From NCBI GenBank assembly GCA_021432655.1, contig MU271450.1, positions 1 to 54,446 on the forward strand: a stretch of DNA of 54,446 nucleotides, given 5' to 3'. Of the stretch, positions 6,018 to 49,370 are shown in pieces. Both the position numbers and the translations under genes were made by a program. The notes beneath the pieces were generated by a model, which was not told the DNA's origin, ran no database searches, and was given only the letters and a program-made list of their open reading frames with translations. The stretch is from Atractiella rhizophila (taxonomy: Eukaryota). The first letter of the stretch is position 1. The number at the start of each line of letters is the position of its first letter.

Positions 6018-7285
6018 ATGAAATCGAGCAAACGACCCCGCTCCCCTTCTCCACCTCCTCAACCTTCCTCGTCTGCGGCAGTTCTCCCACCAACTCATAC
6101 GAGGAGCAGTGCTGCCGACGTGAGCTTTGATTCGCTTTCGCCTTACCGCCTCTCCCAGCTGCCTGACAGCGAATTCTACTATCTACCATCCCTTCTTTCT
6201 CTCCCTTCGCCCCTTTCGACAACTCCGAACAAGTCTGCCGTACTCGGAGAAGACGAACGGTCGAAACTGGACAGATGGTACAAAGACCTCATGGACTCGT
6301 GTCCCTGTACTTATCCTCCTCCTTCCCTCATCTAAATCGTAAACCATCGCTGAGACTATCTTCCTTGGAATTGAAAGGGTACCACCCCACGCTGAAGCTG
6401 TATGGCAAACCCGTCCTGCAATCCCGCGCCATGGCCGTCTACTCCTTACTCCACTCCTCCTCCTCTCCCCAAGTGCGGTATTCGGGAATCGACGCCGTCG
6501 TGCACCCTTTCGAAGAGGCTCCGGAAGCGCTGAGGGAGATCAAAGAGGTGGCGGAGCGTATTTGTGGGATGAAGTTCGAGCATGCGATGGCATGTCCTTC
6601 CTTCTCGCTACAAAGAACCGCTCTCGCTGATGAATGAATGATTGGGAAACAGGTCAATAGGTATGATGATGGCTCAGTCTACATAGGTCCACATCGCGAC
6701 GTCGTCCCGAAGCTTCCAAAGACCACGAAGTCCAAACGCAAATCAGAAAAAGCAGGAGGGACGACGAAGCGTCAAAAAGTGTCTGTCTCCAGCGTGGCCG
6801 ACAATTCAATCAAGACCAAAGGAAAGGGTAGCGCCTGGGAGGATGAACGGGAGGAGGAAGGAAGGGTTGATGAGGCTGAGGAGGGAGAGGAGGCGACGGA
6901 AAGGTTCACCGTCGTCTCTCTCTCCCTTGGTGCCGCCAGGACTTTCGTACTCAAACACCAGGCTCCCCCTTCGAGTGTCCCCGGATCCAAAGCGTCCAAA
7001 CCAACGAAATCCACCAAATCTTCGACATCCTTAACGTCGAAATCGAAACTGGACGCGTCCGAAACCTCCACATCGCTACAGGCTGAGAATGGGGATGAAG
7101 AAGGGAAAGAAAGCGAAGAGGGAGGAGGGAAGATGTATTCTCACTCCTTCCCGCTTGAAGATGGTAGCTTGTTGATTATGCGTGGTGGGGAAACACAAAA
7201 GTGGTGGAAACATGAGATTCCGCGAGAGAAGGGGGTGGTGCGTGGGAGGATCAGTGTTACGATGAGAGGGGGAGTGATGCCTTGA
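6018..7285 (+). CDS. AlkB-family (ALKBH2/3-like) 2-oxoglutarate/Fe(II) dioxygenase, 3 exons
   Basis: Exons 6018-6306, 6378-6589, 6653-7285; intron 1 GTACTT..AAG, intron 2 GCATGT..CAG (GC-AG). The spliced product has WYHPTLKLYGKPVLQSR, RYSG, NRYDDGSVYIGPHRD (HxD), VSLSLGAARTF, LEDGSLLIMRG, WKHEIP (distal His) and RISVTMR. Confidence 0.88.
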
Positions 7286-8817
7286 TACAAATACAACCGT
7301 GTGTCTTCTTGTTGCGTTTAAGCTGTACCTTTCGGAATGTCAAGTGTGGTATTCATTCTGTGCAAAGCCAGCGCATCCTTCCGTTTTGCTTCTACCCTTT
7401 CTAATCGCTCAACTGAGAACAAAATACAAATACCTTAATCCCACCGTATGAGGTTCTATGAAAGCACAATGACTTGAACGAAATTGAATGAAAACAGCCA
7501 CGGCCCCTTTGTCCTCTTCAGCTTTACAGTAGAATTATAATGATACCTGAGTTTGTTCAATTATTCTCACCCACTCTAAATTCTCAAACGTTTACAGAAC
7601 TGTGCAGAGCGATTGAAAGTATGAAATATCAATATACAAGTCTCCTCGAACAATTTGTCATGCTAAATAAACTTAAATTTCTGGGCAGACGCAACGAGAG
7701 TAGTAATAACGAAAGTAACAATATAGATTGCTGATTTCCACCGTAAAGCAGAGTGATGGGACTCGGAAGTCGGCCAAGTTTCTTGAACTAACATTCCAAA
7801 GGAGCCTCTCAGATAACTAAGATGCGAGAACTCAGAAACGATACTCGATCAAGAGAGAGACGGTCCCTGAGGTCCTCCTAGCTTTGACCATAGATCGCCG
7901 ATGTAAAAGATGGAGTAGGGCGAATGCAGAAAAACGAGTAGGGCACAGAAACGAGAGCTCGGGAGTAAATCGCTAGGACGTCTTCCGAACGATCTTTCAG
8001 GAGGAATGAAATGCCAAAGCCATGTTCCTCCTCGCGGCCAACGTCAATTTGGCTGTCGATGAAAACAAGTCTAAATAGTGTGGATCAGTGCCAGCAGTAA
8101 ACGCTTGATTGCTACACTTTACAAAAACACACTTCCCAACGTCTCATTCCGTCGGCACGAAGGGGAGAACAACGACATCAGGAAACGAGAGTAGCGGCAG
8201 ACCGAATCAATGGTTCATTTCGGAAGTGACGCAAGTGAAGCTGATCATGAGTGGGCGGGTGGCGCCCATCGATGGCGTTGATTTATTGAAAAGTCGGATC
8301 GATGGCTTCGGGTAGATGGGCGCGTCCAGACGGTATGTTCTGTTGCAATGTCAAGTGTTACTGGAGTGAAAAGGTTGGAGTGTTTCTTCCAAATCGCCGA
8401 ATCTTACCTGAACGGCTATTTTTCAGCAGTCCATTCGATATTATTCTGTCTGATGATGTTTCGTGCACCCGCGTCCTGGAAGAATAGAAAAAGTTGGGAT
8501 GGAGATGTGGAATGCGTAGGAACGAGCTGGCTGTCTTGTCGCGTCATTCACTCTTCGTCGAAAATGGTAGAACGTGCCAATGTGGAAGCATGATGGATTA
8601 TCTCTCCGGTCAGGTGTGGTCACTTGCTGAGACCGTCATACAACGGTTATTCATTGTACCCTGATGCGAATCCATACTCGTTCTCCTCGTTCACTGGTCT
8701 CCGGCGTGGATTGCAGCTCGTCCTCGCTGATTCCTTTAAACCCCGAGAGGTTTTGTTGATGGGCATTAGGATCGACGTTTGTTAAAAATCATGGTACAAA
8801 CCGCCACAAGCGATGGC

Positions 8818-9878
8818 TCAGGGCACAGCCAAAAACGACAGTCTTATCTTTCTATCAACTTGACAGCATTACGCCGCTTTTGGGTGTGTGGCAGGTGACA
8901 AGCTGTTTGTGAGATGGGCTGAATTGAATTACCAACACACGATCTGACACCTGTGGAGGCGTCTGGACCTAGAAATGGATAGAGAATAGAATGTTGGGGC
9001 GAGTATAAAGGAAAGAGTGTGCCCGGTCTCGTTCCCTCACATCGAACTTTTACCACACACCGCTCATTTCTATCCAGAACTCGCAAATGGAGAGGTCCCC
9101 TAACACTAACCAGTTTAGATTTGTTGTGGCTCTCCTTCGCATCTCCTTTTGTTATCACACTAATTCTCTTTTGCAGGAAAGAGTCGAAGGTGGATACCAA
9201 ATCGAATTAAATGGAGAAAACCACTTTATCCCTACAGATATTGTGCTGGCTCTCCTTGCCGGATTGCTTGTCCGTATGTTGATTTGTTTTTGCATCATCT
9301 ATTGGGAGACGCTGACGGATGATGACGGGATAAGGTGGAATTTGATCGTCTTCCTCAAGTCCCATGTGCTCAGTGCTACGACTGCTGTGTGCTTTTTGGT
9401 CGGGTTGGGGGAATCAACATAGCCACTCACGTCTGTATCATGCGACGGATTCAGTCGTCCTGACGCCAGCTTCTCAGCGCTTTCCCTACACGTGGATCTC
9501 TTCTATATAACGAATGACGAATGCATTTCACTGTTCTTTCCTGTACCTCACTTATGTGAGGCTCAAGCAAGCATGCAGCTACTGGGATGGATCCAAAGTG
9601 AATCATCATCCTTTCTTGACTTTGATAACTACTTCCCTTTCATCGAATCAGGAGGGATCTGACATCTTCAGCCGTGACCATTTGATGATTGCAGAGATGA
9701 CATAAGAAGAATGCACTGTGGGATGTTATGCACAACGCCAACAGCAATCAAATGGAGTGACATGATCGCAGGGAGGGAATGGATTGTGAAGCAACTGTAG
9801 ATCCGTTCAGGGTATTCGTACATAAACAACTTTTGAACAAGAACTTTTGGGATGTACAACACCGCTGTATAAAGTATT
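8818..9878 (+). repeat. Putative donor copy of a ~1.06-kb direct duplication (other copy 10817-11875)
   Basis: Colinear high identity from TCAGGGCACAGCCAAAAACGACAG to ACCGCTGTATAAAGTATT in both copies. It contains a whole microprotein gene. Confidence 0.95.
9087..9345 (+). CDS. Microprotein family copy 3 (3 exons, 48 aa)
   Basis: Exons 9087-9125, 9177-9273, 9335-9345; introns GTGGCT..CTAAT..TTGCAG and GTATGT..GCTGAC..TAAG; MERSPNTNQFRFV|ERVEGGYQIELNGENHFIPTDIVLALLAGLLV|RGI*; TATAAA at 9004-9009. Confidence 0.85.
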
Positions 9879-10387
9879 CCTCGTATCTTCATCTAGAATT
9901 CTCAGCGCACATTGCGAATGTGACCTGAATCGTTTGATAGTTGACAAATAGACATGAATACGCCACCAGCATGGAATATTCAAGTTAAAAAGGAACCAGC
10001 CTGGAATCTATATTACTGCTTTTGAGACTGATAACTTGGGTTTCGGGTTTGAATATTTGGATCGTGTTTGACCAGACTTGAGCGATTCATCACTCTATTT
10101 CAGATTGAGCACTGAGAGAGGAAAAACGGGCTTTTCAAGATCTTGGGAGAATAAGCACTTAATAAAATTTCACACCCTCCTTTTATCATATGAGAGGAAG
10201 CATTTAAGACTCACCTTAGAGCGGCGATCCGCTAACTAAATCACAGCCATAAAGTTCTCTGTCTTAAAGCTTGCCTTTCCCTCTTCCAACAACTCGTTAA
10301 CACAACACTATTTCCGCCATCACGTGAACTGTAAAAAACCTGCGACCCCGCGCGCGCCCGCTCTGCGCTCCATTCAAAGTCAGAAGG

Positions 10388-10820
10388 ATGTTGCCGCCGC
10401 CCCTTCACACTCCTCTGCGCCTCCTCCATCTGCATCCGCGGGAACTGAACCTACGAGCTGTGCTGTTGTGTGGACAGGCATTTCGCTGGACGCGCTCTCC
10501 GGCTTCTGTCACCGTTCACAACAATGAAGCAGAAGGTCCAAGTGGTGATGTGGCTGAGGGCAGACTGGAGCGTGGAAGAGAAGGCGAGGCGGAGGAGTGG
10601 AGCTTGGCATGGGAAGACAGAACTGTCGTTTTGAGGCAAATTGGTGTGCCTTCTTGCTCCTCCCAATTAGTTGTACACAGAGCTAATTCTGAAGTTGCAC
10701 GTAACAGGGAAAGGAATTCTCTACCGCTCACTGTACCTCCCGGCAGCCGCTTCCCGTACTGCTTGGTCCCTCGACTGCCAGAAGGATACGACGCGTCCAC
10801 TGCTCGAAGAATACTTTCAG
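10388..10820 (+). pseudogene. OGG1: 8-oxoguanine DNA glycosylase, 5' part (OGG_N domain), interrupted
   Basis: ELNLRAVLLCGQAFRW and EWSLAWEDRTVVLRQ, intron 10644-10707 (GTGTGC..GCTAAT..CAG), then ILYRSL..TTRPLLEEYFQ. Homology stops exactly where the duplicated segment starts. Confidence 0.88.
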
Positions 10821-11875
10821 GGCACAGCCAAAAACGACAGTCTTATCTTTCTATCAACTTGACAGCATTACGCCGCTTTTGGGTGCGTGGCAGGTGACAA
10901 GCTGTTTGTGACATGGGCTGAATTGAATTACCAACGCACCATCTGACATTTGTGGAGGTGTTTGGACCTAGAAATATATAAAGAATAAAACGTTGGTGGC
11001 GAGGTAATAAAGGAAAGAGCCTGCCCAATCTCGTTCCTCACATCGAACTTTTACCGCCCCCGCTCATTTTATCCAGAACTCGCAAATGGAGAGCTCCCCT
11101 AACGCTGACCAGCGTAGAATTGTTGTGGCTCTCCATCGCATCTCCTTTGGTCATTACACTAATATCACCTTTGCAGGAAAGAGTCGACGGTGGCTACCGA
11201 ATCGAATTAAACGGAGAGATCCACTTCTTCCCTACAGATATTGTGCTGGCTCTCCTTGCCGGATTGCTTGTCCGTATGTTGATTTGTTTGCATCATCTAC
11301 TGGGAGATACTAAAGAATGTTGATGGGATAAGGTGCAATTTGATTGTCTCAAGTCCCACATGCTCAGTGCTACGACTGCTGTGCGCTTTTTGGTCGTGTT
11401 GGGGGAATCAACATAGCCACTCACGTCTGTATCATGCGACGGATTCAGTCGTCCTGACGCCAGCTTCTCAGCGCTTTCCCTACCCGTGGATCTCTTCTAT
11501 ATAACGAATGACGAATGCATTTCACTGTTCTTTCCTGTACCTCACTTATGTGAGGCCCAAGCAAGCATGCAGCTAGCCACTGCGATGGAACCAAAGTGAA
11601 TCATCATCCTTTCTGAACTTTGATGACTACTTTCCCCTTCATCAAATCGGGAGGGATCTGACATCTTCAGCCGTGACCATTTGATGATTGCAGAGATGAC
11701 ATAAGAAGAATGCACTGTGGATGTTATGCACAACGCCAACAGCAATCAAATGGAGTGACTTGATCGCAAGAAGGGAATGATTGTGAAGCAACTGTAGATC
11801 CGTTCAGGGTATTCGTACATAAACAACCTTTGAACAAGAACTTTTGGGATGTACAACACCGCTGTATAAAGTATT
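10817..11875 (+). repeat. Duplicated segment occupying the place of the OGG1 catalytic core
   Basis: Copy of 8818-9878 lying between OGG1 EEYFQ and FLGGKKG, with short junction microhomologies (TCAG at left, TTYCTYG at right). Confidence 0.92.
11086..11343 (+). CDS. Microprotein family copy 4 (3 exons, 48 aa), inside the disrupted OGG1
   Basis: Exons 11086-11124, 11177-11273, 11333-11343; MESSPNADQRRIV|ERVDGGYRIELNGEIHFFPTDIVLALLAGLLV|RAI*. Confidence 0.85.
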
Positions 11876-12389
11876 TCTTGGCGGGAAGAAGGGAGGTAAG
11901 GGAAAGTATACGATGAGTAAAGGCATATATGACAAGATCCAAGTTGCTTTTCGGGAGCGGTGGGGAGAGTGGAGTGGATGGGCGCAGCAGATTTTGTTCA
12001 CAAGTGATTTGAAGGGTTTTGAGGGGTTCGATTGGTCTGAAACGCTAGCTGCGAAGCAGGTGGAGGTTTTGAAAGTCGAAGAGGAGGAAGTTGAGGGGAA
12101 GACAAGGGTTATGAAGAGACAGAGAGAAGTGGAGTTCGAAAATAACGTGAAAAGCGAGATGAGGATGACTCGGAAGAAAATACGAGTGGACGAAAAATCT
12201 ACGACAGTTACTGCGGAGCAAGGGGGAGCCAAGCTGGAGGACGCGGACGAAGGGTGGGGAGGGTTCGGCGATCCATATCCCACCCCTCTTTCTTTGGTTA
12301 TGGAGAAAACGATTGATTTGGTCCAGAATGATGACTGCATTTTGGCGGAGAGTGTTAAAGGAAGGAAAGGGAGGACGCGGATGCGGTGA
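11874..12389 (+). pseudogene. OGG1: 8-oxoguanine DNA glycosylase, 3' part
   Basis: FLGGKKGGKGKYTMSKGIYDKIQVAFRERWGEWSGWAQQILFTSDL matches the OGG1 C-terminal F..WG..aGWAq..LF..DL motif. It is followed by an open acidic/basic tail to TGA at 12389. Confidence 0.85.
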
Positions 12390-13481
12390 GCACTTTATAC
12401 AGCTGTGTTGCATCCCTTGGAGGTTCTTTGCTCGAAGTCCATGCCAAGTATCTGTGTAAGATCGTTCAAAAAAGCGTGTCTCTCAAGAAAGGAAAGGGAT
12501 GCGTCTCGATCTTGAGCACAATTATACTTTTTTTCACAATCCACTCCAACAATGGTTTACTATGCTCCTTGACTTGCATCTGGAAACCTTATCCTAATTT
12601 CATCGGTGTGACCTGCCGTTAACCATTCTCATATTGCAATGTTTTTGTTTCTCGTTGTCAACGGTGGTTTTTAGATTGTTTGAATAGCCTTTGTGTTTTT
12701 TAATGGCAGCGCGAACTTGTTCACGCTGGAACTTGTAGTACTTTGCGATGGAAGAATTGTTATCCTCGACGTTGCCTCTGTGCAGTTGACGAATGACAGG
12801 CTCAGGTACCTCAGGTACACCACCCCATGGCCTAGCTTAGCTGTCCGTCATCGAACGCTTCCATTTTAGTGAACATCCGCCACAATCTATTCAAAGCAGT
12901 GCTCCGTTCAACAAGATGAGCAGATTTTGACAGGTATGCACCAGTATATATCTCGGCAAAGAAGTGGTGCTTGTAGGGAGGTGGTGTACCATCGAAGAAG
13001 ATACCGGATATTAAGGCGCCTGCAGAACTGCTCCCAGAGCTCCGTGTTTCCTGCGCGATGCATGGGGGTTCAATCTTTTCCGTCCATATATGTAGCAGCT
13101 GCCAAGGTCACCGACGTTGGTGTGAAGAATGTGAAGTAATATGGGAGAGCATTCCGCTTTGCTTGAGTTTTAAAGAAACTAGGATGATTTCATATCACAA
13201 CCCCGCCGCTTACAACGCGTTTGCAGACTGTTTGCTCTGAGGTTTGGGTGAGATGAAGGGGAAGATACGCTGCTCCATGACGTTCCCTCTTCAAAAGGGT
13301 CATTGTGTCTCATTGGATACCGAGAAAGAACGGTAAATTCATTTTAAATCAGACAAGAAGACGATCCTTTCTGAAAGCAGGAGAAGCGAAGATTGCGAAT
13401 ATAAGAGTCCATCACGTGATTCGGTGAAGAAGTGACAAAATTGTTTTGGTAAGTGCGACTGGAATAGTTGTAATGTTACGC

Positions 13482-14574: not shown

Positions 14575-15500
14575 CAAAGAGGCTCTCATGACCATCCAGC
14601 ACATCGGTCCCAAAGCGCAGACTGCTTCCGACTCATGGGCTTAGGCTGGTGACACGCCGGCTTGTGGATACTGACATCTTCCGAATCGATGTAGAAAGTA
14701 CAGTTCCCATCACTAAGAAGAAGCGAAAGCGGAAGGTGGAGTACACGGTAGGGACATAAGCCGGGATTCAAGCTGCGTTTCGGGAGTGCATCGCAGAGGC
14801 GGACAGCAAGCTGGAAAATGGGCGAAGGGCACGACAATGATGAAAGGGATTCGGAAGTGGACGACTGGAATCCCCAATGCATACCAAGGTGGACGACGAT
14901 CAACAATGCATACGACTGCAAACAAGAAGCCACGTACCTGAAATTCCCACGCGTATGATGGTGGGTGACGCTGGAGATTCCTCTATTAGCGCGAGAGGGA
15001 AGGCAAGAGCTGTCGGGTTGCCCAAACATTTTCTCTCTTTGACCATGAAGAAGGCATATATGACAAGATCCTAGTTGCATTTTCGGAGCGATGGGGAGAG
15101 TGGAGGGGCTATGCTCAACAGATCTTTTGTTACCAGCGATTTGAAAAGTTTCGAGGGATTCAATTGGTTAGAGGCTGTGATCTCGAAAGTGAAAGAGGAA
15201 GAGGGAGAGGAGAAGAGAGTGCTGAAGAGACGGAGGATTGAAAGAAGCGCTGAAGAACGGAAAGACCATGAAAAGCATTCGGAAGCAGATGTCTGCGGAT
15301 GACGAGTATGCGCTAGATATCGATTGGGAGGGGAAGCGAAGCTTGAACAATCCATAAATCACCCCTCTTTCTTTGGTTATGGAGAAGACGATTGATTTGA
15401 CCCAGAAGGATGTGGGCAATTTGGGGGAGAGGGTCAAGGAGAGGAAGGCCGTGGATGGGTAAGTGCATTATACAGCTGTGTTGCAGTGGAGGTTCTTTGT
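14575..15500 (+). pseudogene. OGG1: Decayed OGG1 relic retaining traces of the HhH-GPD core and the 3' end
   Basis: Across frameshifts: KEALMTIQHIGPK-ADCFRLMGLGW*..LVDTDIFRI..GIQAAFRE. 15047-15500 aligns at the DNA level with about 11920-12430. Confidence 0.75.
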
Positions 15501-17889: not shown

Positions 17890-18640
17890 AGAATCTCATG
17901 GTGTTCTCCAGTGCCGTGCCAGACTGCAAGACTACCGTCGCAGACTTTCGCTACTCACGGCTTCTGCTACATTTCAATCGTCACCATGGACGTACACGCC
18001 TTCGAATCGGAGTAGAACAGCATAGTCATGGTTTCCTCGGCGGGAAGAAGGAAAAATCAAAATACCCTACGAGTGAAGGCATCTTTGAGAAGAACCAAGC
18101 TGCGTTTGGGGATCGGATTGGCGCCAGGTCGATGGGCACAGCAGATTTTGTTCACGAAGCACTCGAAGCGGTTCGAGGAGCCGATGGTCCGAAATGGTTG
18201 CGTTGAAGGAGATGCTGCACTCAGAATTGGAAGAGGAAGAGTGCCCTAAGAAGGGAAAGGGAAAAACGGAAAAGCCAAAAAACTGGAGAGAACTGGACCT
18301 AAACCGTGAAGGAGGGAAGGAAGCGATGCGGAAGAGCTAGACGTGGATGATCAGTTGGCCCAGCCGAGGAACAGCGGAAGCAAAGCTGATGAACGTAGTT
18401 GCAGAGAACCAGCTGCGGTTTGCAGTATCCTCGTAACTTTCCTGATGTTCCACCGACCGTGAATTGATGATACCTTCGAGCGGCCATCCTGGGGTCCCCA
18501 AACTAGGCGCCTCTTTCTTTGGTGATGGAAAGATCATCGATTTGGTTCCGGGATGTGGTAGTTTGGCGGAGATCTAAGTGGAGGAAGGAGAGGATGCGGA
18601 TGCGGTGAGTACTTCTTATAGCTGTGTTGCATGTAGCGGA
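17890..18640 (+). pseudogene. OGG1: Decayed OGG1 relic
   Basis: Frameshifted motifs VAD..IVTMDVHAF..HGFLGGKKEKSKY..EGIFEKNQAAF..RWAQQILFT. The 3' end (GGATGCGGATGCGGTGAGTACTTCTTATAGCTGTGTTGCAT) matches about 12370-12413. Confidence 0.75.
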
Positions 18641-30810: not shown

Positions 30811-31001
30811 TGAACAAGGTGAACGAGGGAATTGATGACCTAAACCAGTCAATGGCGCCTCGCCTCAACCTGCCAGCGTTGGAAGGTCAGGTTTGAATGT
30901 GTACCATGAACAAGGTGAACGAGGGAATTGATGACCTAAACCAGTCAATGGCGCCTCGCCTCAACCTGCCAGCGTTGGAAGGTCAGGTTTGAATGTGTAC
31001 C
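30811..31001. repeat. Perfect tandem duplication, 96-bp period
   Basis: TGAACAAGGTGAACGAGGG...GAATGTGTACC at 30811-30905 and 30907-31001. Confidence 0.95.
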
Positions 31002-31829: not shown

Positions 31830-33070
31830 TACGCTTTCATTTCATTCCAACACCAACCTGCAGACATCTCCACGTGCTCTTGCTCAGGCACTTCCACGCA
31901 TGCTTATCTCCAAGTTCCGATTCGAGCCGTTATTAGCGGAGCTCACGTTTTCCGTCTCCAGTCTCCTTGTTCTTTTTCTTCGGCGTCCGCCTTCCCGTTC
32001 CACCGCACTACGCTTCTTCGAGGTAGATGTTTCGGCCCATCGTCCCAGTTGCTACGTCGCTTACAATTCCCCTACGCCTTTTGACGATGTTTCCCAATCT
32101 CTCCGTTCCTCCTCCAGCCTTCCCGCCGGAAGAGAGGCATGGCTCTTTGTCTTCGGCGCGCGTCCCAACTGGTTCTCGCCCTGCCTCCCCTCTCATCAAC
32201 ATGAGCACAACCAACGCTACCTCCACCCCTTCCCCCTCAACCCCTCCGTCTCATCTGACTTCCGCCAAACCCTAGGCTTCACTCCCACTCCTTAGCAGCC
32301 CATACTCTCTTCCAGCCATTAAAGCACTGTAATCGCTGCACGCCATTTCATCCCTGACCTCATCCTCCAGTCCAACGACGCCTACGACGGCAAATAACAA
32401 AGGGGATGATGAGAATGAAGGTGGGGAAGCAACACCGCAGATGAGAGGACATATTGAAAGCGAGACTGAGGTTTACTGATGAATATGCGTCACTCGTTCC
32501 TGTGGACGCCAGCGTGTTCCGGAAAGGTTCGAACAGTACGGCTTCCTCGGTGGTAGAGGGAAGGGAAACTGTGTCTGACAAAGATCAGCTACGATTAAGG
32601 GACTGCGGGGAGAGCGGGGGAGAGCGAAGTGCATGAGTGCGGCAGCACCTCCTGCTCAGAACCGTTTCGGACTAATCGAACCACTTGGAACCTTCGTCTG
32701 GCTTAGGAAATGGCAAAGGCGGACCGAGAGAAGTGGCAGAAGGACTAATGAAGACGGTGAGAGACGTTGAGTTGAAAATATGGTGATTAGTGGGAATAAG
32801 GATATAGAAGAACGAAAGCGAGAATGTAGAGTCTGCGCAAGTTGTCGAGGTAGGAGAGGAATCGAAAGTGGACCGCTCGGAGGAGCAGCGGGGAGGGCTG
32901 GGCGATCCGACACCTCTGTCTTTGCCCGTGGGAAAGACGATTGATTGGTACTGAAAGATGAGAGTAATTTAGGCGGAGAGAATTAACGGGGAAAGGGAGG
33001 ATGCAGATTCGGTGAGTGTTTCCTAGCCGCGTCACGTAGCGTGGAGGTTCTTTGTTGAGGTTTTGCATTC
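31830..33070 (+). pseudogene. OGG1: Decayed OGG1 relic
   Basis: YLHPFP..SVSSDFRQTLGF (cf. OGG1 YHxFP..LRxLGFGYRA), VPVDASVFR and QYGFLGGRGKG. 32880-33060 aligns with the OGG1 3' end at about 12250-12435. Confidence 0.68.
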
Positions 33071-40497: not shown

Positions 40498-40541
40498 GAA
40501 GAATACTCTCTTTACCTTTTCAGAACAGCAAAACTTAAAAA

Positions 40542-41852
40542 ATGTCGGAGGTTTGGGGAGACATGGAAACGCGCGAACCGCCGACGAGCGAAGAACGCAT
40601 CCAGCACTTAGAAAGGATGTTCCAAACTCTACACCTCACAACTGAAAAGCAATTCAAAAAACTCGAACAAGACCTCATAACAAGCTTCAACCAACAAAAT
40701 GCGCAAACCTCCCAGAATGCGATCGAAATTGCGCAACTGAGGTCCGACGTCCAAAACACAAATGACCGAATTTTACAATTGCTAGATTCCAGACTACCTC
40801 CTCCTAGAGATAGTGGGACCACTTCCCCCTTTTTATCGCGAACAGATCCAACACCTCAGACTTACCCTTCTCCTTCTGTACCCCAAACTGTCCAAGTTGT
40901 ACCATATGCAGGTATCAAACTTGCCCCACCTTCAATTTTCAAAGGAGTACCCAACACAGCTCCGACATTTTTGCGCGAAATTTACGTCTACACGTCTACA
41001 GTTCCAAGCCAATTCCCGACCGAAAAATCGAAAATCCTATTTACCCTTTCTTACATGAAAGAAGGAGATGCGGAAAAATTCGCCGCTGGGATTTTGCGCC
41101 GACTTGTCGAAAATGAGGAACAAATTGCGTGGGAACAATTTTTGTCGGAGTTCAAGGCGCGTTTCTGCAAGACAGACCACAAGCTCATTGCACAGACAAA
41201 AATATCTTCCCTTCAACAAAAGGGTAACCTAGAAACCTACATCATCAAGTTTGAAGAATTGGCAAATCAAGCTGACTTTGATGATGAAGCCCTCATTTTT
41301 TTCTTCAAACGGGGACTCAATCCTGCCCTACACCTCAAAGTAACCCAAGGGGAGTTCTCAAAATCGCTGGAAGACTGGAAAGAAAAATCTCGGCGAATTG
41401 ATGCGGAAGAATCTGCTCATTCAACCTTCTTTCGAAACATCCCATCGGCGAAAGACAGACCACAAAATACATTTTCTGCAAAAAGGGACAGCTCAAAATC
41501 CTCAAAGCACAGAGAGAACAGAACCCCCGTATCGTATCGACCGAGCGCCGCCTTGTCACCGGTCGCCGATCCGTCACCCAACGCCGCTCCACACGCTCAT
41601 AGGGCCAAAGACCCCGATGACATGGAAGTCGACGCGACAAAGTCTAGACCTCCCCGTTGCAGGCGATGCCAAAAGATAGGACACCGGGAAAGGGACTGTA
41701 GAACGATTATGAACAAGGAGCAATATCTTCGGGCCCAAGGAGAATATTTTGATTCGAAAATGATGCACCAAGAACGACATTTCGGACAATTCGCCGACCG
41801 GTCGCCGAAAACGAGTGCTACCCAATCGAAAGATCTTGAGGAGGATTTTTAG
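40542..41852 (+). CDS. gag: Gag (retrotransposon capsid with CCHC zinc knuckle)
   Basis: 436-aa ORF with KILFTLSYM..W..F..EFKARF, LQQKGNLETYIIKFEELA and CRRCQKIGHRERDC. It ends in GAGGATTTTTAG, a typical gag-pol frameshift context. Confidence 0.92.
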   Translation: MSEVWGDMETREPPTSEERIQHLERMFQTLHLTTEKQFKKLEQDLITSFNQQNAQTSQNAIEIAQLRSDVQNTNDRILQLLDSRLPPPRDSGTTSPFLSRTDPTPQTYPSPSVPQTVQVVPYAGIKLAPPSIFKGVPNTAPTFLREIYVYTSTVPSQFPTEKSKILFTLSYMKEGDAEKFAAGILRRLVENEEQIAWEQFLSEFKARFCKTDHKLIAQTKISSLQQKGNLETYIIKFEELANQADFDDEALIFFFKRGLNPALHLKVTQGEFSKSLEDWKEKSRRIDAEESAHSTFFRNIPSAKDRPQNTFSAKRDSSKSSKHRENRTPVSYRPSAALSPVADPSPNAAPHAHRAKDPDDMEVDATKSRPPRCRRCQKIGHRERDCRTIMNKEQYLRAQGEYFDSKMMHQERHFGQFADRSPKTSATQSKDLEEDF

Positions 41853-41863
41853 GACGGCGGTGG

Positions 41864-44800
41864 GTGGAAGAAGTGTCCCCATCGCCGAATTGCAATTCAT
41901 TTACGTCACATAAAATCACTTCCAACAAAATGCCGCCCAGCACAGTATTCCCCCCACAAGAACAAGACTCCCCATTCCCGAAATTGCGTTTTCCCTCCTG
42001 GAGACAAAGATGCGCAGAAGTCGCAAAAATGTACGACAAAGTCCACCTACGCTCGACAACAGCATCCCTTGTCAGTTCGAAGACGAAGCTCAGAACCGCA
42101 TTCCACCATCCGCATTCCCATCGCCGACAGGCCACATCGGCGCTCGTCGACAGCGGCGCAACTACTTCTTTTATTTCTCAAAACTCGTTTCTGCATACAA
42201 CCTACCTGTCACTCAACTTCCTTCCCCAGTACCTGTTTATAACATCGACGGATCTCTCAATCAAGGTGGATCCATCCACTCTGTTACTTATTTGCCCATT
42301 TCGATCGCCGCTCACCATGAAGTTTGGCAATTCGCTGTAGCGGAGTTAGGGACTGTCGACATGATTTTAGGCCACGACTGGCTAAGACACCACAACCCAG
42401 AGATCAACTGGGACTCAGGGAAAGTTGAGTTCTCTCGTTGCCCTACCAGTTGCAATGCAGATGACGTGTCTACCACTCACGAAAAATTCCCGCCATCATC
42501 TACCTCGATACGAGCCGCTATGACAAAATCGCAGAAACTGGCGAAAGACGCAGCGGCGATGAGACCAAAAAATGTCGTCGAAATACCAACGCAAATCGCC
42601 GATTTTGCAGACATCTTCAACGACGAAAAATCCAAAACTTCTCTTCCTCCCCGACGTCCTTGGGATCACGCGATCAACCTCATACCCGAATCACGACCAT
42701 ACGTGGGCCCGGTCTACCCCTTGAAAAGAGACGAACAAGCGGCGCTCGACCAGTTCATTGACGCCGAACTAAGCGCCGGTCGTATACGTCCTAGCACAGG
42801 AGAACATGGAGCTTCTGTTTTTTTCACGCACAAAAAAGACTCCTCCAAACTTCGTCCCCTTTTCGATTATCGAAAGCTGAACGAAGCCACAGTCAAAGAC
42901 AAGACCCCACTCCCCATTCAAGCTGACCTCTTTTCCATGGTTTCTGGTAAGAAGTTTTTCAGCAAGATTGATCTGAGGAAAGGGTTGAACAACGTTCGTA
43001 TCAAAGAAGGAGACGAACACAAAGCGGCGTTTCACACAAATCGAGGACTTTTCGAACCATTGGTAATGTATTTCGGGCTCTGCAACTCACCGGCGACTTT
43101 CCAAGCTTTCCTGAACTCTATTTTCCGCGCGATGATCGCCGCTGCGTTCATCTTCATATACATTGACGACATCCTAATTGCGACAGAAACTGAAGAAGAA
43201 CACTGGGAACGCGTTCGAGAAGTTTGTCAAATTTTTAAAATGGGCTTTATGTTAACTTACAGAAATGTGTCTGGTGTCAAAGCGAAGTAGAGTATCTAGG
43301 ATTGATCATTACCAGCAGAGGGATCGAACCGGATCCAGTAAAGGTTGCAGGAGTGATGGATTGGCCGGAACCGAAAAACATGAAGGAAGTCCAAATGTTC
43401 CTTGGTTTCGCTAATTTCTATCGCCGCTTTTGCGACAGATTTAGTCACATCGCAAGACCTTTATATGAACTGACCAAAAAAGAGATTTCCTGGGTCTGGG
43501 GGGTAGATGAACGACATTCGTTCGCTGCTTTGAAGCAGCTCATGACTTCGGCGCCCGTTTTGGCACATCCCGAACAAATAGGACGATTTTTGCTCGAAGT
43601 CGATGCGTCAAATTTCGCGACAGGCGCCGTTTTGTCACAAATGAAACCAGATGGGAAGTTTCATCCTCTTGGTTTCGTATCAAAATCGCTTGACGCTGCC
43701 CAGAGGAACTATGACACCTACGACAAAGAAATGCTCGCGATTATGCGGGGACTGCAAGAATGGAGTCACCTTCTACAAGGTACTGATGAGCCATTTCTGA
43801 TCTTGACCGATCACAAAAACCTTGAGTATTTCAGAATGCCGCAGAAGTTGAATCGCCGACAGGCACGCTGGATCACTGAACTTGCATCTTTCAACTTCAC
43901 ACTTTTACACCGTCCTGGGCGGAACTCCGCAAAACCAGATGCGCTCAGTCGGCGACCGGATCACAAACCGGCGACTTGCGACAACTTTGACGTAGTGTTA
44001 CTCCCAGAACGTTTTTTCAACACAGATCGTATCACGATCAACGCGACTGGGAGCGCGGTTGCGCTCACTAGACAAGTGTCGGAGTTGAGTATACTGGAAC
44101 GCGTGAAAAAGGTACCTGAACGAGAAGAACAAGTAGTCAAAGCCTTGAGAGAGATCCTAGACGAACCAGTCGACGCAATTCGCCGACGGGAGTGGCAAGA
44201 AGTCGATGGTGCTGTCTACTTTCGCGGAAAACTCTACATCCCCCGCGACGACGAAATTCGCCGCTCGATTTTGCAAGACCTACATGATTCGCAAATCGCT
44301 GGTCATCCAGGCGTAAAATCGACGACAGCTCTAGTAAAAAGGTACTATTGGTGGCCAGGTTTAGCGCACTACGTTCGCCGCTATGTCGGCGCCTGTCACA
44401 CTTGCCACAGAACGAAAAACTTTCCTTCCCCACCTGTCGGGTTTTTGCAACCAAATGACATCCCCACACGTCGCTGGCAAATTGTCAGCATGGATTTGGT
44501 TGGACCACTCCCAGAATCTGGGCGGTTCGACACGATTTTCGTCATAGTAGACAGACTCTCAAAACGCACCCATCTCATCCCCACCCATTCGACGATGGAT
44601 GCAGAAGGCCTTGCAAGACTCTTTCGCGATCACGTATGGAAGTTGCATGGACTTTTCGATGTCGCAATTTTCGATCGAGGCAAAGAGTTCGTGTCCAAAT
44701 TCACATCCGCGCTTTTTCGCCTATTAGGTATCAAAGGTTCACCATCGACAGCCTATCACCCGCAAAGTGATGGTCAGACTGAACGCATGAACCAAGAGGT

Positions 44801-45090
44801 TGAACAATATTTGCGCATTTTCTGCAATCACCTTCAAGATAATTGGGTGGAAGGACTTCCCAACGCAGAATTTGCGCTCAACAATCGCGTCAGTTCAGCG
44901 ACGGGCGTAACTCCATTTTCGCTCGATTGCGGTCAACATCCACGCATGGCCTTTGAACCCATCTCCGACGAGGACGTTCCCGCGGCGGCGCAATTCGTCG
45001 AAAAGATGCAAATCGCCGACCGGGAAGCACAAGCGGCACTCGAGCAAGCAGCAGATCTCATGGCAAAACATTATGACAGAAAACGCGCTG
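41864..45090 (+). pseudogene. pol: Pol polyprotein (protease, RT, RNase H, integrase) with frameshifts near 42180 and 43230
   Basis: ALVDSGATTSFIS; ILGHDWL..HNPEINW; FDYRKLN; YFGLCNSPATFQ; YIDDILI; FLGFANFYRRF; VDASNFATGAVL; TDHKNL; H..GHPG..CHTC; MDLVGPLP, DRGKEF, GQTERMNQ. Confidence 0.93.
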
Positions 45091-46625
45091 TATTGCATGT
45101 AACTGTGGAGATGACAAAAGCGAAACAAACTTGGAAGCAGGCATCGTGAATCAGCATCTGTGAAGGCAAACATCTCAAGAACCTGGAATGCTCATCATTT
45201 CACACCACCCATCAAATGAACCGGATTTCATTCCGGTTCTCTGGACAACAGAATCTGACCAGGACATGTTTCAAGTGCGCCGAAGCAAATCCTGTTGATT
45301 GTGCCATTTTGCAAAATCACAATCTGCAGACTTGAGCAAATTAGGTCGAAGATGGAGTGATGAGAAAACTCAACCAGAAAGCCTATTACGGACACACACC
45401 TCTGCTCCCCTTCCAACTTCCCATCTCCAGTGTAACAGCTTGTTTTGTTCAGTTAATGGATACTCAAATGATCATCCTATACTCTAAGATTCATCAGTTC
45501 TAGGCATGAGTCATAAGACGCACTTTTGAGCCCTCACACCTCCCCCACCATACACAATAGAATGAAATGTATTATACCATCATATCCCATATGCTTGCCC
45601 CTTTCTGAACCTGCAAGGAAATTTTATTCTGAAAGGGTTCAAAAATGCGTTTCGTACTGGACTCGAACCCTGACAACGGTCACAGTAGGGTTCAAGGGGC
45701 CATGCCCCTTGCAAGTGGGTGGGGGGCCTGAGGGACGAAGGCCGTTGACACACTTGTCAAGACCAAGATTTCAACATTTCAAGATTGGCAACCAAAGTTG
45801 TCGGAACCGGCTGAATCCTGACAAGTTTTCTCTTCCGCTGACGATGAAGTTTCTTGCAGTTTCTTCATTGCTCCCAGCATCCTGGCTGGACCTTCCTCAT
45901 GGCAATAAAAAGGACCAACATGTTCGTCTCTTCTCTCTCCTCTCTCCAAAACTCTAACTAATCAAATTATTAGTCCATTACCATGAGCCACGATGATGGG
46001 CTTGATTTTTCACAGGTGTTTGGTATGGAAGCCGCTTCACATTAATTCTATCTCTTCAGAACCTGTCCTCAAACCTTGGAGGGATAGGAGGTCATTTTGG
46101 CTTGCATGGATCATCGTCAGACTCAGATATCCATGCTGTCGACAGATCACGAGCTCGCGATCATTCTGACTTTGATCTAAGGCATCGACAACCTGTAGTG
46201 CTCTGCACTACAGGACCTCCCAGTCCAAACACTCGGAGTGGGCATGAGCTATCTTTGGAAGAACTCAACAAAGCCCTACTAAGGCTTATTGACAACAACC
46301 GGTTTCTGCAATGGTCGGATCTTGTAGGATTGACGGCTTTTGCTAGGATTAGTTCTTGTTCTACTATTCACCTGCAACCCTGAAGCATTAACCTTTATCG
46401 GCAGTACCACATTGCGATCCAGCTGACATCGATCTATGCCACCCAAGTGGGACTTCAGCGGCAGTTCGCAGACATTGCGAGACGAGACAACGAGTGCATT
46501 TCAAAAAAATCACAGCTAGGAGATTGACAAGCTGAGATTTGGGGCAAAATAATCCCGATATTGTTTCTCATCGTTCAGCAGGAGCAGTTCAATCACCGAT
46601 GATGCGACAGTCCGCTGAGGATGAT

Positions 46626-48139: not shown

Positions 48140-49370
48140 CTTCTTTTATTCCATTTTCCAACAATCAATCTACGGAAAACATCTGGCAACATCAGACAGC
48201 TTACACGCCCGCTTATCTGACGTTCCTCAAATCCAAACTCCAGCCGTTGGCTGGCCGACCTACGTTTTCCGTCTCCTCCTCTGTTCTTCAGCACCTGTCT
48301 TCAACTCCTCCGTCGAGGTCACTCGTACAATTGGCTAGGACGTCGTTTACAGCTTCCCCTTCGTCCTGGATCAGGTCCTGGATGACGTCTCCAGGCTCTC
48401 CCTTCCTTCTCACCTCTCCTCCAGTTTTCCGAAAGAGAGGGCCAAGCTCTCCGTTTTTACGAACGTTCCAACTTCCGCCTCTCATCCGCATCAACGAACG
48501 AACGAACGGACGACCACCTTTTCTACCCTCCTCTGCTCTCAAGCCCCTCCGTCTCCTCCAATTTCGGCCAAACCATGTAGGAGTGAAGCTAATAGGGAAG
48601 ACGTACTCCTTCCCGCCATTAAACCACTTTAATTGCTCAACCCAATCCCCAAACCTCGTCCTCTGGTCGTCCTCCGGTCGAACGACGCTTACCACGGCAA
48701 ATAACAAGGAGATGAAGAGAATGAAGGTGGGATAGCAACAGCGCCGATGAGAGGGCATATCAAAAGCGAGACTGAGGTCTATTGATGAGCACGAGTATGC
48801 GTCACTCGCCCCTATGGACGACCGCATGTTCCGAAGGGTTCGAACAGTACGGCTTTCTTGGCGGGAGAGGGAAAGGAGAAACTGTGTGTGACAAAGGTCA
48901 GCACGGTTAGCGGACTGTGGGGAAGCGGAGGGCATGAGTGCTGCAACACCTCCTTCAGACCTGTTTCGCACTTATTGAACCCTTTGGAACCCTTTACTCC
49001 CTTTTGAAAAGAGAGAAGGAGAACCGTGAGAAGGGCAGATAGACTCATGAAGTCGGAGATGTTGACTTTGAAACATGCTGATTGTTGGGATAACGAGGAT
49101 TCGAAAGACGTAATCGAGAATGTCGAGTCTGCGCCGGTTGTCGAGGCAGGACAGGAACCGAAGAGGATCCCTCAGAGGAGAAGGCTGGGCGGTCCATGCT
49201 GCACACCCCTGGCTTTGCTCATGGAGAAGACGGTTGATTGTCCAGGAATATGAAAGCAGTTTAGGCGGAGACAATTAAAGGGGAAATGGAGGACGCAGAT
49301 GCGGTGAGTATTTCCTAGCCGTGTCACGTAGAGTGGGCGTTCTTCGTCGAAGTTTTGCATTCTGTGTGAA
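48140..49370 (+). pseudogene. OGG1: Decayed OGG1 relic
   Basis: LAPMDDRMFR and QYGFLGGRGKG at ~48805-48880. 49180-49350 aligns with the OGG1 3' end (ATGGAGAAGACGGTTGATT..GGAGGACGCAGATGCGGTGAG). Confidence 0.68.

Follow-up and report, generated by a model that had tools for sequence, protein, structure and literature searches.

Does the fungus Atractiella rhizophila carry an OGG1 gene whose catalytic core has been exchanged for a copy of a neighboring gene? The question is raised by a locus in contig MU271450.1 of assembly GCA_021432655.1, of which we analyzed 54,446 nt (here, the window). The window is eukaryotic and repeat-rich and contains no N; self-comparison showed many diverged segmental repeats across it, and it also holds an open reading frame (ORF) for an AlkB-type 2OG-Fe(II) oxygenase (6638-7285) and a Ty3/gypsy element (~40.5-45.2 kb). 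Its first OGG1 exon matches the N-terminal end of an A. rhizophila protein deposited at NCBI, P0004, with 100% identity. A literature search found no account of the assembly procedure for this genome, which the acknowledgements of PMC13347111 give as unpublished. An earlier reading made from the sequence alone (the sequence-only reading) held that both ends of OGG1 are open and that everything between EEYFQ and FLGGKKG is absent. The features concerned are as follows.

10388 to 10643, plus strand: OGG1 exon 1 (MLPPP...VVLRQI), ending at the first base of codon 86
10644 to 10707, plus strand: OGG1 intron 1, 64 nt, GT..AG, with a spliced joint in sequencing runs X3 and X4
10708 to 10817, plus strand: OGG1 exon 2 up to the breakpoint (GKGILYRSLY...PLLEEYF)
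10818 to 11873, plus strand: block B, in place of the OGG1 core, a paralogue of 8818-9881
11874 to 12389, plus strand: OGG1 3′ part, comprising the last conserved helix, a 130-residue Lys/Glu-rich tail and the stop codon
8818 to 9881, plus strand: copy A of the 1.06-kb block, the closest relative of block B

Both outer parts of the gene proved to be open, as had been claimed. The end of exon 1 was set by a spliced joint from 10642 to 10707 (cut +1) in X3 and X4, where its depth is 130.4 and 2.6, respectively; the joint is absent from the contigs of runs X1 and X2. Exons 1 and 2 together give 122 open codons, with ...PLLEEYF as the last residues, and 11874-12386 gives 171 (FLGGKKG...WGEWSGWAQQILFTSDL...MR), followed by the stop codon at 12387-12389. 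A whole-library phmmer search with P0004 as the query returned 122 other proteins, from which we picked 10 full-length ones, all 10 carrying OGG_N and HhH-GPD by Pfam. With 25 proteins from the phmmer list, these 10 included, tblastn gave matches at 10388-10844 and 11907-12203, the best (P0007) having an E value of 2.7e-14, and these matches reach orthologue residues ~102-148. The exon 2 piece lines up with the end of OGG_N in 8 orthologues; OGG_N in the window lacks about its last quarter, the alignment stopping at ...EEYF, and the Pfam score for OGG_N (PF07934) on the read-through ORF is borderline (22.8 bits versus a cut-off of 23). The C-terminal helix WGEWSGWAQQILFTSDL (W-x-x-x-G-W-A-Q/H-x-(I/V)-L-F, after the Asp motif) aligns with 8 of 8 orthologues and with the human and mouse OGG1 chains. 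The PDB sequence matches were OGG1 in 32 cases of 32, with the N-terminal piece (at about residues 22-46 of the chains) and the C-terminal piece (at 293-324) both aligned. Judged by the sequence of both its ends, the locus is OGG1.

The part between these ends is missing from the assembled gene. In the alignment with 8 orthologues, the OGG1 pieces end just 5′ of the stretch (Q/N)L-DV-L--LY and restart after the stretch (V/I/L)D-H---IA--DY. The alignment to orthologues, which had been proposed as a way to size the deletion, puts the loss at 180 to 224 residues (in the 7 of 10 orthologues with both anchors locatable by pattern), or an estimated 540 to 670 coding nt plus introns, a length similar to the 1,056 nt of block B. 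The missing span holds both catalytic motifs, G(P/R)K(V/I)ADC with the lysine and (V/I/L)-D-x-H with the aspartate, each of which was found in 9 of the 10 orthologues. Pfam gave no match to HhH-GPD (PF00730) in 138 of the 152 window ORFs of ≥85 amino acids, the other 14, outside the scan, lying within the retrotransposon at 40.5-45.2 kb. Likewise, orthologue residues ~110-290 had no tblastn match in 10388-12389, and tblastn with all 122 other phmmer proteins found nothing outside 10300-12400 at an E value of ≤1e-3. The sole core remnant detected in the window is a weak, frameshifted relic at 17.9-18.2 kb. The assembled form thus resembles fungal orthologues and solved structures over its first 122 residues and its last conserved helix but has no OGG1 catalytic domain. 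The claimed absence of everything between EEYFQ and FLGGKKG stands as regards the core with its Lys and Asp motifs, with the correction that the Q codon is part of the inserted block.

What occupies the gap is a paralogue of copy A. Self-blastn aligned 8818-9881 with 10817-11878 at 91.7% identity over 1,073 columns, which bears out, for the assembled sequence, the claim that a 1.06-kb block related to 8818-9878 replaces the core; a MAFFT alignment of the two copies contains 73 substitutions (45 transitions and 28 transversions) and 20 gap columns. By self-blastn, the full block is present in the window only as these two copies. Their similarity breaks off abruptly at both block ends, and positions 10818-10886 are identical to copy A. 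Junction microhomology was scored against intact read-derived sequence on both sides. The codon CAG at 10818-10820 (Q of EEYFQ) belongs to block B, the read-derived form going on AAC..., and the left microhomology is therefore a single T (10817) and not TCAG, as first read. At the right junction, for which TTCCTCG against TTTCTTG had been cited, the shared TT (11874-11875) and the imperfect 5-of-7 match are there, but the true microhomology is only 2 nt. Microhomology of 1 to 2 nt is weak support for template switching, since chance and classical end joining often produce as much. The ends of block B showed neither terminal repeats, inverted or direct, nor a target-site duplication, as had been stated. 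We rejected a transposon insertion (there is no target-site duplication or terminal inverted repeat, and target DNA was lost, not duplicated) and a reading of block B as a giant intron, since there is no GT at 10818.

The block holds the two conserved 5′ exons of a small-gene family with 13 copies in the window, 11 on the minus strand and 2, those in A and B, on the plus strand. Each copy has an open exon of 32 to 33 codons with the pattern xKTxGGYxIEVxGExxFFPEEMVLxVLAGLLAR, and a short ME..N..WRFVV exon lies before it. Pfam assigned the small gene to no family, the protein atlas gave no usable match for its ORF at 9009-9422, and the library search with P0004 found no relatives of it. The family members may be microproteins or the 5′ portions of longer genes that evolve fast. 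Four OGG1 3′ relics lie further along the window.

ATG near 9088, conserved exon 9178 to 9273, plus strand: small gene in copy A, with two or three exons, borders inferred from GT..AG
ATG at 11086, conserved exon 11177 to 11273, plus strand: small gene in block B
15051 to 15499, plus strand: OGG1 3′ end relic, frameshifted, to which a low-depth X3 contig (6.15) belongs
17917 to 18632, plus strand: OGG1 relic, frameshifted, beginning in the Asp-motif region (..VTMDVHAF..) and continuing through FLGGKK into the tail
32890 to 33054, plus strand: OGG1 tail-only relic
49177 to 49308, plus strand: OGG1 tail-only relic

Each of these relics (at 15.05, 18.03, 32.9, and 49.2 kb) lies upstream of a convergent family member, so that duplications of this small-gene neighbor repeatedly took the OGG1 tail with them. 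Two other loose contig ends belong to the 15-kb relic. The relic at 17917-18632, matched by P0007 residues 277-332 (E value of 3e-4 versus 1.8 kb), is by its sequence a copy of an unbroken OGG1. Since it still spans the core-to-tail boundary, it marks the unbroken order of core then FLGGKK as ancestral and the window form, in which that order is broken, as derived.

Five public sequencing runs contain parts of 10200-12600, and four of them were compared with 8500-12700 as Logan contigs, which PMC12424806 (section 3.1.2) describes as Minia3-simplified k=31 de Bruijn graphs with each 31-mer present once. X1 and X2 come from one sample and are presumed to be DNA, as they cover introns and intergenic sequence and the splice joint is absent; X3 and X4 come from two other samples and are called RNA-like solely by the GT..AG joint, through which 10644-10707 is spliced out. 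The exon 2 contig of every one of the four runs departs from the window at 10817 and goes on into sequence foreign to it; this extension measures 283 nt in both X1 and X2, but 224 nt in X3 and only 14 nt in X4. The first 30 letters of this extension translate in frame as NLAVSLSPLY, where the orthologue P0016 has QL-DVKLEPLY. On the other side, the X1, X2, and X3 contigs over 11874-12700 bear 173 nonwindow letters before 11874, of which the last 30 translate in frame as VFRIGVEQYG, where P0016 has VFQIAIRDYS. These 30 + 30 of the 283 + 173 letters are those that were read, and as far as it is visible the read-derived form resembles ordinary OGG1. The letters for VFRIGVEQYG have 15 consecutive nucleotides in common with the relic at 17990-18040, where the translation is ..DVHAF / IGVEQHSHG-FLGGKK. 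Neither intact-form 30-mer occurs in the window even with up to 3 mismatches, and the exact 30-nt intact-form sequence had 0 matches in metagenome contigs.

The flanks of these contigs are those of the window locus, with 2 mismatches in 611 nt (X1, 5′), 1 in 827 (X1, 3′), 0 in 111 (X3), and 0 in 159 (X4), and the abundant RNA-like contigs of X3 (depths of 130 and 227) bear the intact form. An unbroken OGG1 of the same locus thus exists in both the DNA and the RNA-like data. Neither window junction is present in any contig of the four runs, whereas all four support the alternative join at the left breakpoint and three of them at the right; these are contigs, which are unable to show absence. 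Both outcomes that the sequence-only reading had named as refuting it were thus observed, in DNA contigs that cross the breakpoints with OGG1-like sequence and in spliced RNA-like contigs that do likewise, and that reading is supported only in part, for the anatomy of the assembly. The organism has therefore retained an OGG1 that is intact and expressed, and the replaced form accounts for no more than one of two copies or is an assembly construct.

We give about an even chance to the core-less form being a hemizygous rearranged allele or a very recent paralogue; the contigs do not separate it from a construct. The DNA sample has two haplotypes in this region: paired alleles at 8950-9027 occur at near equal depth (92 of 183.1 in X1 and 132.8 of 246.5 in X2), as do those at 10146-10163 (126.7 of 270.7 in X1). 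Both X1 and X2 have contigs identical to the B-specific sequence at 10882-11099 and 11074-11258 (0 mismatches). In X1 these contigs have depths of 78.3 and 87.8, where the flanks reach 221.8 and 236.7; in X2 the depths are 127.5 and 118.5, where the flanks reach 334.7 and 356.9. Block B thus stands at about half the flank depth in both runs, as would befit one of two haplotypes. Block B and the intact form are therefore both in the DNA sample, with the junctions unseen; that B sits inside OGG1 in real DNA is what we infer.

The depth of the intact core bears on the same reading. For the contig leading out of the 5′ flank into the core, mean depth is intermediate (169.7 in X1 and 251.2 in X2); a flank at double depth followed by 283 nt of core at single depth would predict about 183 and 256. 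In both runs this contig lies 21 to 24% under the other double-depth contigs, although contig depth, as one figure per contig, is a weak measure. These intermediate depths fit a single-depth core beside a double-depth flank. The geometry of the insert also favors an allele: deletion and filler lie at one locus, both flanks belong to a single gene and keep its order and orientation, and the flanks share nothing with the block ends beyond 1 to 2 nt. Assemblers join at shared sequence, so two invented junctions would not be expected here. The region is also prone to rearrangement, with the four further OGG1 3′ relics, the 13 small-gene copies, and the diverged repeats, and the derived order of the window form, as judged from the relic at 17917-18632, suits an allele that arose from the intact one. 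The haploid-collapsed assembly would then have picked the second, nonfunctional form of the OGG1 locus.

Four observations speak against an allele. The first is that the window junctions are missing from the contigs of all four runs. The second is that contigs of X1 and X2 continue without a break across 8818, 9881, 10817, and 11874, where junction k-mers would branch; a junction path at full single-haplotype depth should survive the Minia3 cut-offs and break the contigs. The third is that the exact block B occurs only about once per genome, which leaves no identical donor, and the fourth is that the two contigs entering the core are not joined, branching in the core being less expected if it is hemizygous. 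Calculated from the depths, 10818-10881 and 11743-11873 lack a covering contig in X1 and X2, which is uninformative; some of the holes over B are explained by 31-mers shared with copy A (10818-10886). At 8950-9027, a window-like copy A (~91) and a third version, A′ (92), are each near single depth, and 10 of the 16 variant letters listed for A-region contigs are B's letter. A′, A, and B are thus entangled in the k-mer graph.

A construct, in which OGG1 is intact on both haplotypes and the assembler or a gap-closing step, working in a heterozygous and repeat-rich stretch, wrongly placed B between its flanks, is a substantial possibility that falls short of even. Block B would in that case be a real hemizygous third version of the neighboring block, with flanks like those of copy A. 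The pattern at the breakpoints speaks for such an error, with 4 of 4 runs leaving 10817 into OGG1-like sequence, 3 of 4 reaching 11874 from it, and none holding a window junction; the X1 and X2 contigs are unbroken at 8818 and 9881, and in 31-mer space the ends of B continue like the flanks of copy A. Block B is about as long as the missing core. The perfect 95-nt repeat with a 1-nt spacer at 30811-31001 may be another local assembly flaw. The only OGG1 model found for the species is the core-less one: queries with exon 1, with P0004, and with region 190-240 returned P0004 only and no intact OGG1 protein model of A. rhizophila, so that the assembly appears to contain this form alone. Haplotype-related assembly errors in heterozygous genomes are a known class, and the case resembles them in its heterozygous sample, its third block version, and the disagreement of the contigs at both junctions. 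It differs in that errors of this class usually duplicate or collapse haplotypes at shared sequence, while the window junctions share 1 to 2 nt; two junctions without shared sequence, in register within one gene, are not usual for overlap or k-mer assemblers. The low depth of the flank-plus-core contig, which fits a single-depth core, and the lack of any N in the window also weigh against a construct.

The sequence-only reading, taken at face value, would mean that the sole OGG1 has lost its core and that 8-oxoguanine excision by OGG1 is gone, and this we regard as very improbable. Both the assembly and P0004 lack the HhH-GPD core, and such a loss is tolerated elsewhere, since fission yeast is described in the abstract of PMC4150805 as lacking homologues of the relevant 8-oxo-dG repair enzymes. 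Against it stand the DNA contigs at both breakpoints and the RNA-like contigs from two samples, which are OGG1-like with only 0 to 2 flank mismatches per contig.

P0004 itself is a 362-amino-acid "hypothetical protein BT69DRAFT_1321953" on a 63,157-bp contig. In it, exon 1 is followed by an out-of-frame reading of the unspliced intron 1, then by the small-gene exon ERVDGGYRIELNGEIHFFPTDIVLALLAGLLV from the block, and finally by the OGG1 3′ part. Although this very composition was deposited and low-depth X3 contigs lie over B, a working chimeric gene expressed as P0004, for example as a catalytically dead lesion binder, is scarcely credible, since the model reads through an intron that is removed in RNA, the X3 contigs that cover B read through its donor site without splicing, the RNA contigs of high depth carry the intact form, and none of the 122 other proteins shares the architecture. 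Those X3 contigs have depths of 2 to 2.5 and are identical to 11177-11384, and no joint for the internal intron of P0004 (~11273 to 11872) was among those listed for any run. As the RNA-like contigs splice out intron 1 and bear the intact continuation, the P0004 gene model is unsupported by the RNA-like data. Among the 122 proteins, P0005 and P0059 match only the out-of-frame middle of P0004, P0005 being a bacterial Ig-repeat protein that we take for a chance match, and the rest are ordinary OGG1 or fragments of it. No relatives of P0004 were found among 100 pattern matches in metagenome contigs. Short proteins matching P0004 residues 195-300 had been considered as an Atractiella relic family and were rejected, tblastn identifying them as OGG1 C-terminal fragments with ≤57% identity to the window.

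If the hemizygous allele is real, its origin would involve a break inside OGG1 and loss of ~0.8 to 1.1 kb, taking the end of OGG_N and the whole HhH-GPD core, with the gap filled by 1,056 nt of a neighboring-type gene block and the joins made through the 1-nt and 2-nt microhomologies. The filling could be end-joining capture of a fragment or two template switches of the MMBIR/FoSTeS type. The template-switching or repair-patch explanation offered earlier is a fair one for such a form, except that 8818-9878 was not the direct donor: the divergence between A and B is 8.3%, against 0.1 to 0.3% (2/611 and 1/827) between the OGG1 flanks and the contigs with the intact form, and copy A was therefore not the direct template. 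No identical or near-identical template was found, the best match within the window being at 91.7% and no second identical copy of B showing in X1 or X2. The region of copy A is polymorphic between haplotypes, with 2 to 3% substitutions and a 103-nt indel at 8563-8665, and sequence left of 8535 is unalignable between them; a divergent allelic template on the homologue is plausible. Such a template would have lain on the homologous chromosome, as a divergent copy of the block, when an earlier cell was diploid or in meiosis, and would since have segregated away. That the core-less form is a recent allele made by two template switches onto a divergent homologue copy, with the donor gone, we put forward tentatively, as a doubtful but not negligible account.

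Such an event would be a further instance of microhomology-associated deletion with templated or filler insertion. Templated insertions of the MMBIR type are described in the abstract of PMC8421209, and the window form is like them in involving one locus, loss of target, an insert related to a locus 2 kb away, 1 to 2 nt of junction microhomology, and no transposon ends. It is unlike them in that the nearest candidate template is only 91.7% identical and the junctions are in no read-derived contig, and its 1,056-nt insert contrasts with the templated insertions at yeast breaks in the abstract of PMC11724301, which are mostly 5 to 34 bp.

Taken at face value, the assembly would present a root-associated fungus without a core enzyme of oxidative DNA damage repair. 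For the whole organism this is wrong, and the window does not show that the fungus has lost OGG1. The window form may not exist as a feature of the genome. If it is an artifact, it is a local error with a spurious gene model in a reference genome that serves to place a whole fungal class in phylogenomics, and the practical value of the analysis lies in flagging an allele or error, together with a spurious chimeric protein model, in that reference. A real allele, by contrast, would record a single natural step that deleted 1 kb and wrote 1 kb in a DNA repair gene of a wild dikaryotic or diploid fungus, and thus a case of kilobase-scale filler repair in a hypervariable gene array. A recessive OGG1 null would then be segregating in the species, and spores inheriting it would lack OGG1 and could be mutators.

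The protein model deposited at NCBI for the OGG1 locus (P0004, 362 amino acids; window 10388-12389) is a chimera that retains OGG1 intron 1, read in the wrong frame, and joins an exon of the small-gene family to the OGG1 tail by a splice. Its handling of the first intron was contradicted by the RNA-like contigs. Upstream of OGG1, contigs from the DNA runs revealed a second, strongly diverged haplotype across 8500-10310, with substitutions at 2-3% relative to the window and a 103-nt indel at 8563-8665; left of 8535, its sequence could not be aligned to the window. From ~10310 on, DNA-run contigs were almost identical to the window, and one of them continued for 5.4 kb.

Other features of the window were as follows.

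6638-7285: open reading frame with a 2OG-FeII_Oxy_2 (AlkB-type) domain (E value of 1.8e-13)
40539-45149: Ty3/gypsy retrotransposon with gag, protease, RT, RNase H, and integrase domains
15051-15499, 17917-18632, 32890-33054, and 49177-49308: degenerate relics of the 3′ end of OGG1 (n = 4)
3540, 4775, 9165, 11165, 16607, 19086, 24552, 30392, 33697, 35369, 46670, 50857, and 52951: copies of the small-gene family (13 across 3540-53080)

With the AlkB-type frame, which lies 3 kb upstream, OGG1 has another gene of DNA-repair type nearby; the retrotransposon domains are spread over three long open frames. At 30811-31001, a 95-nt sequence occurs twice as perfect copies with a 1-base spacer; the sequence was either duplicated in tandem very recently or misassembled locally.

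In the small-gene units, exon 1 is short (ME..N..WRFVV); exon 2, of 32-33 codons, is conserved (xGGYxIEVxGExxFFPEEMVLxVLAGLLAR) and open in all 13 window copies, with little conservation elsewhere in each unit. Searches of Pfam, the protein atlas, and the library returned no relatives; the motif may bear a loose resemblance to the start of BTB or F-box domains.

Low-level transcription of the OGG1 relic at 15 kb is possible, as one X3 (RNA-like) contig of depth 6 matches it. Downstream of each of the four relics lies a convergently oriented small-gene copy, and the OGG1 tail appears to have been carried along by duplications of its small-gene neighbor.
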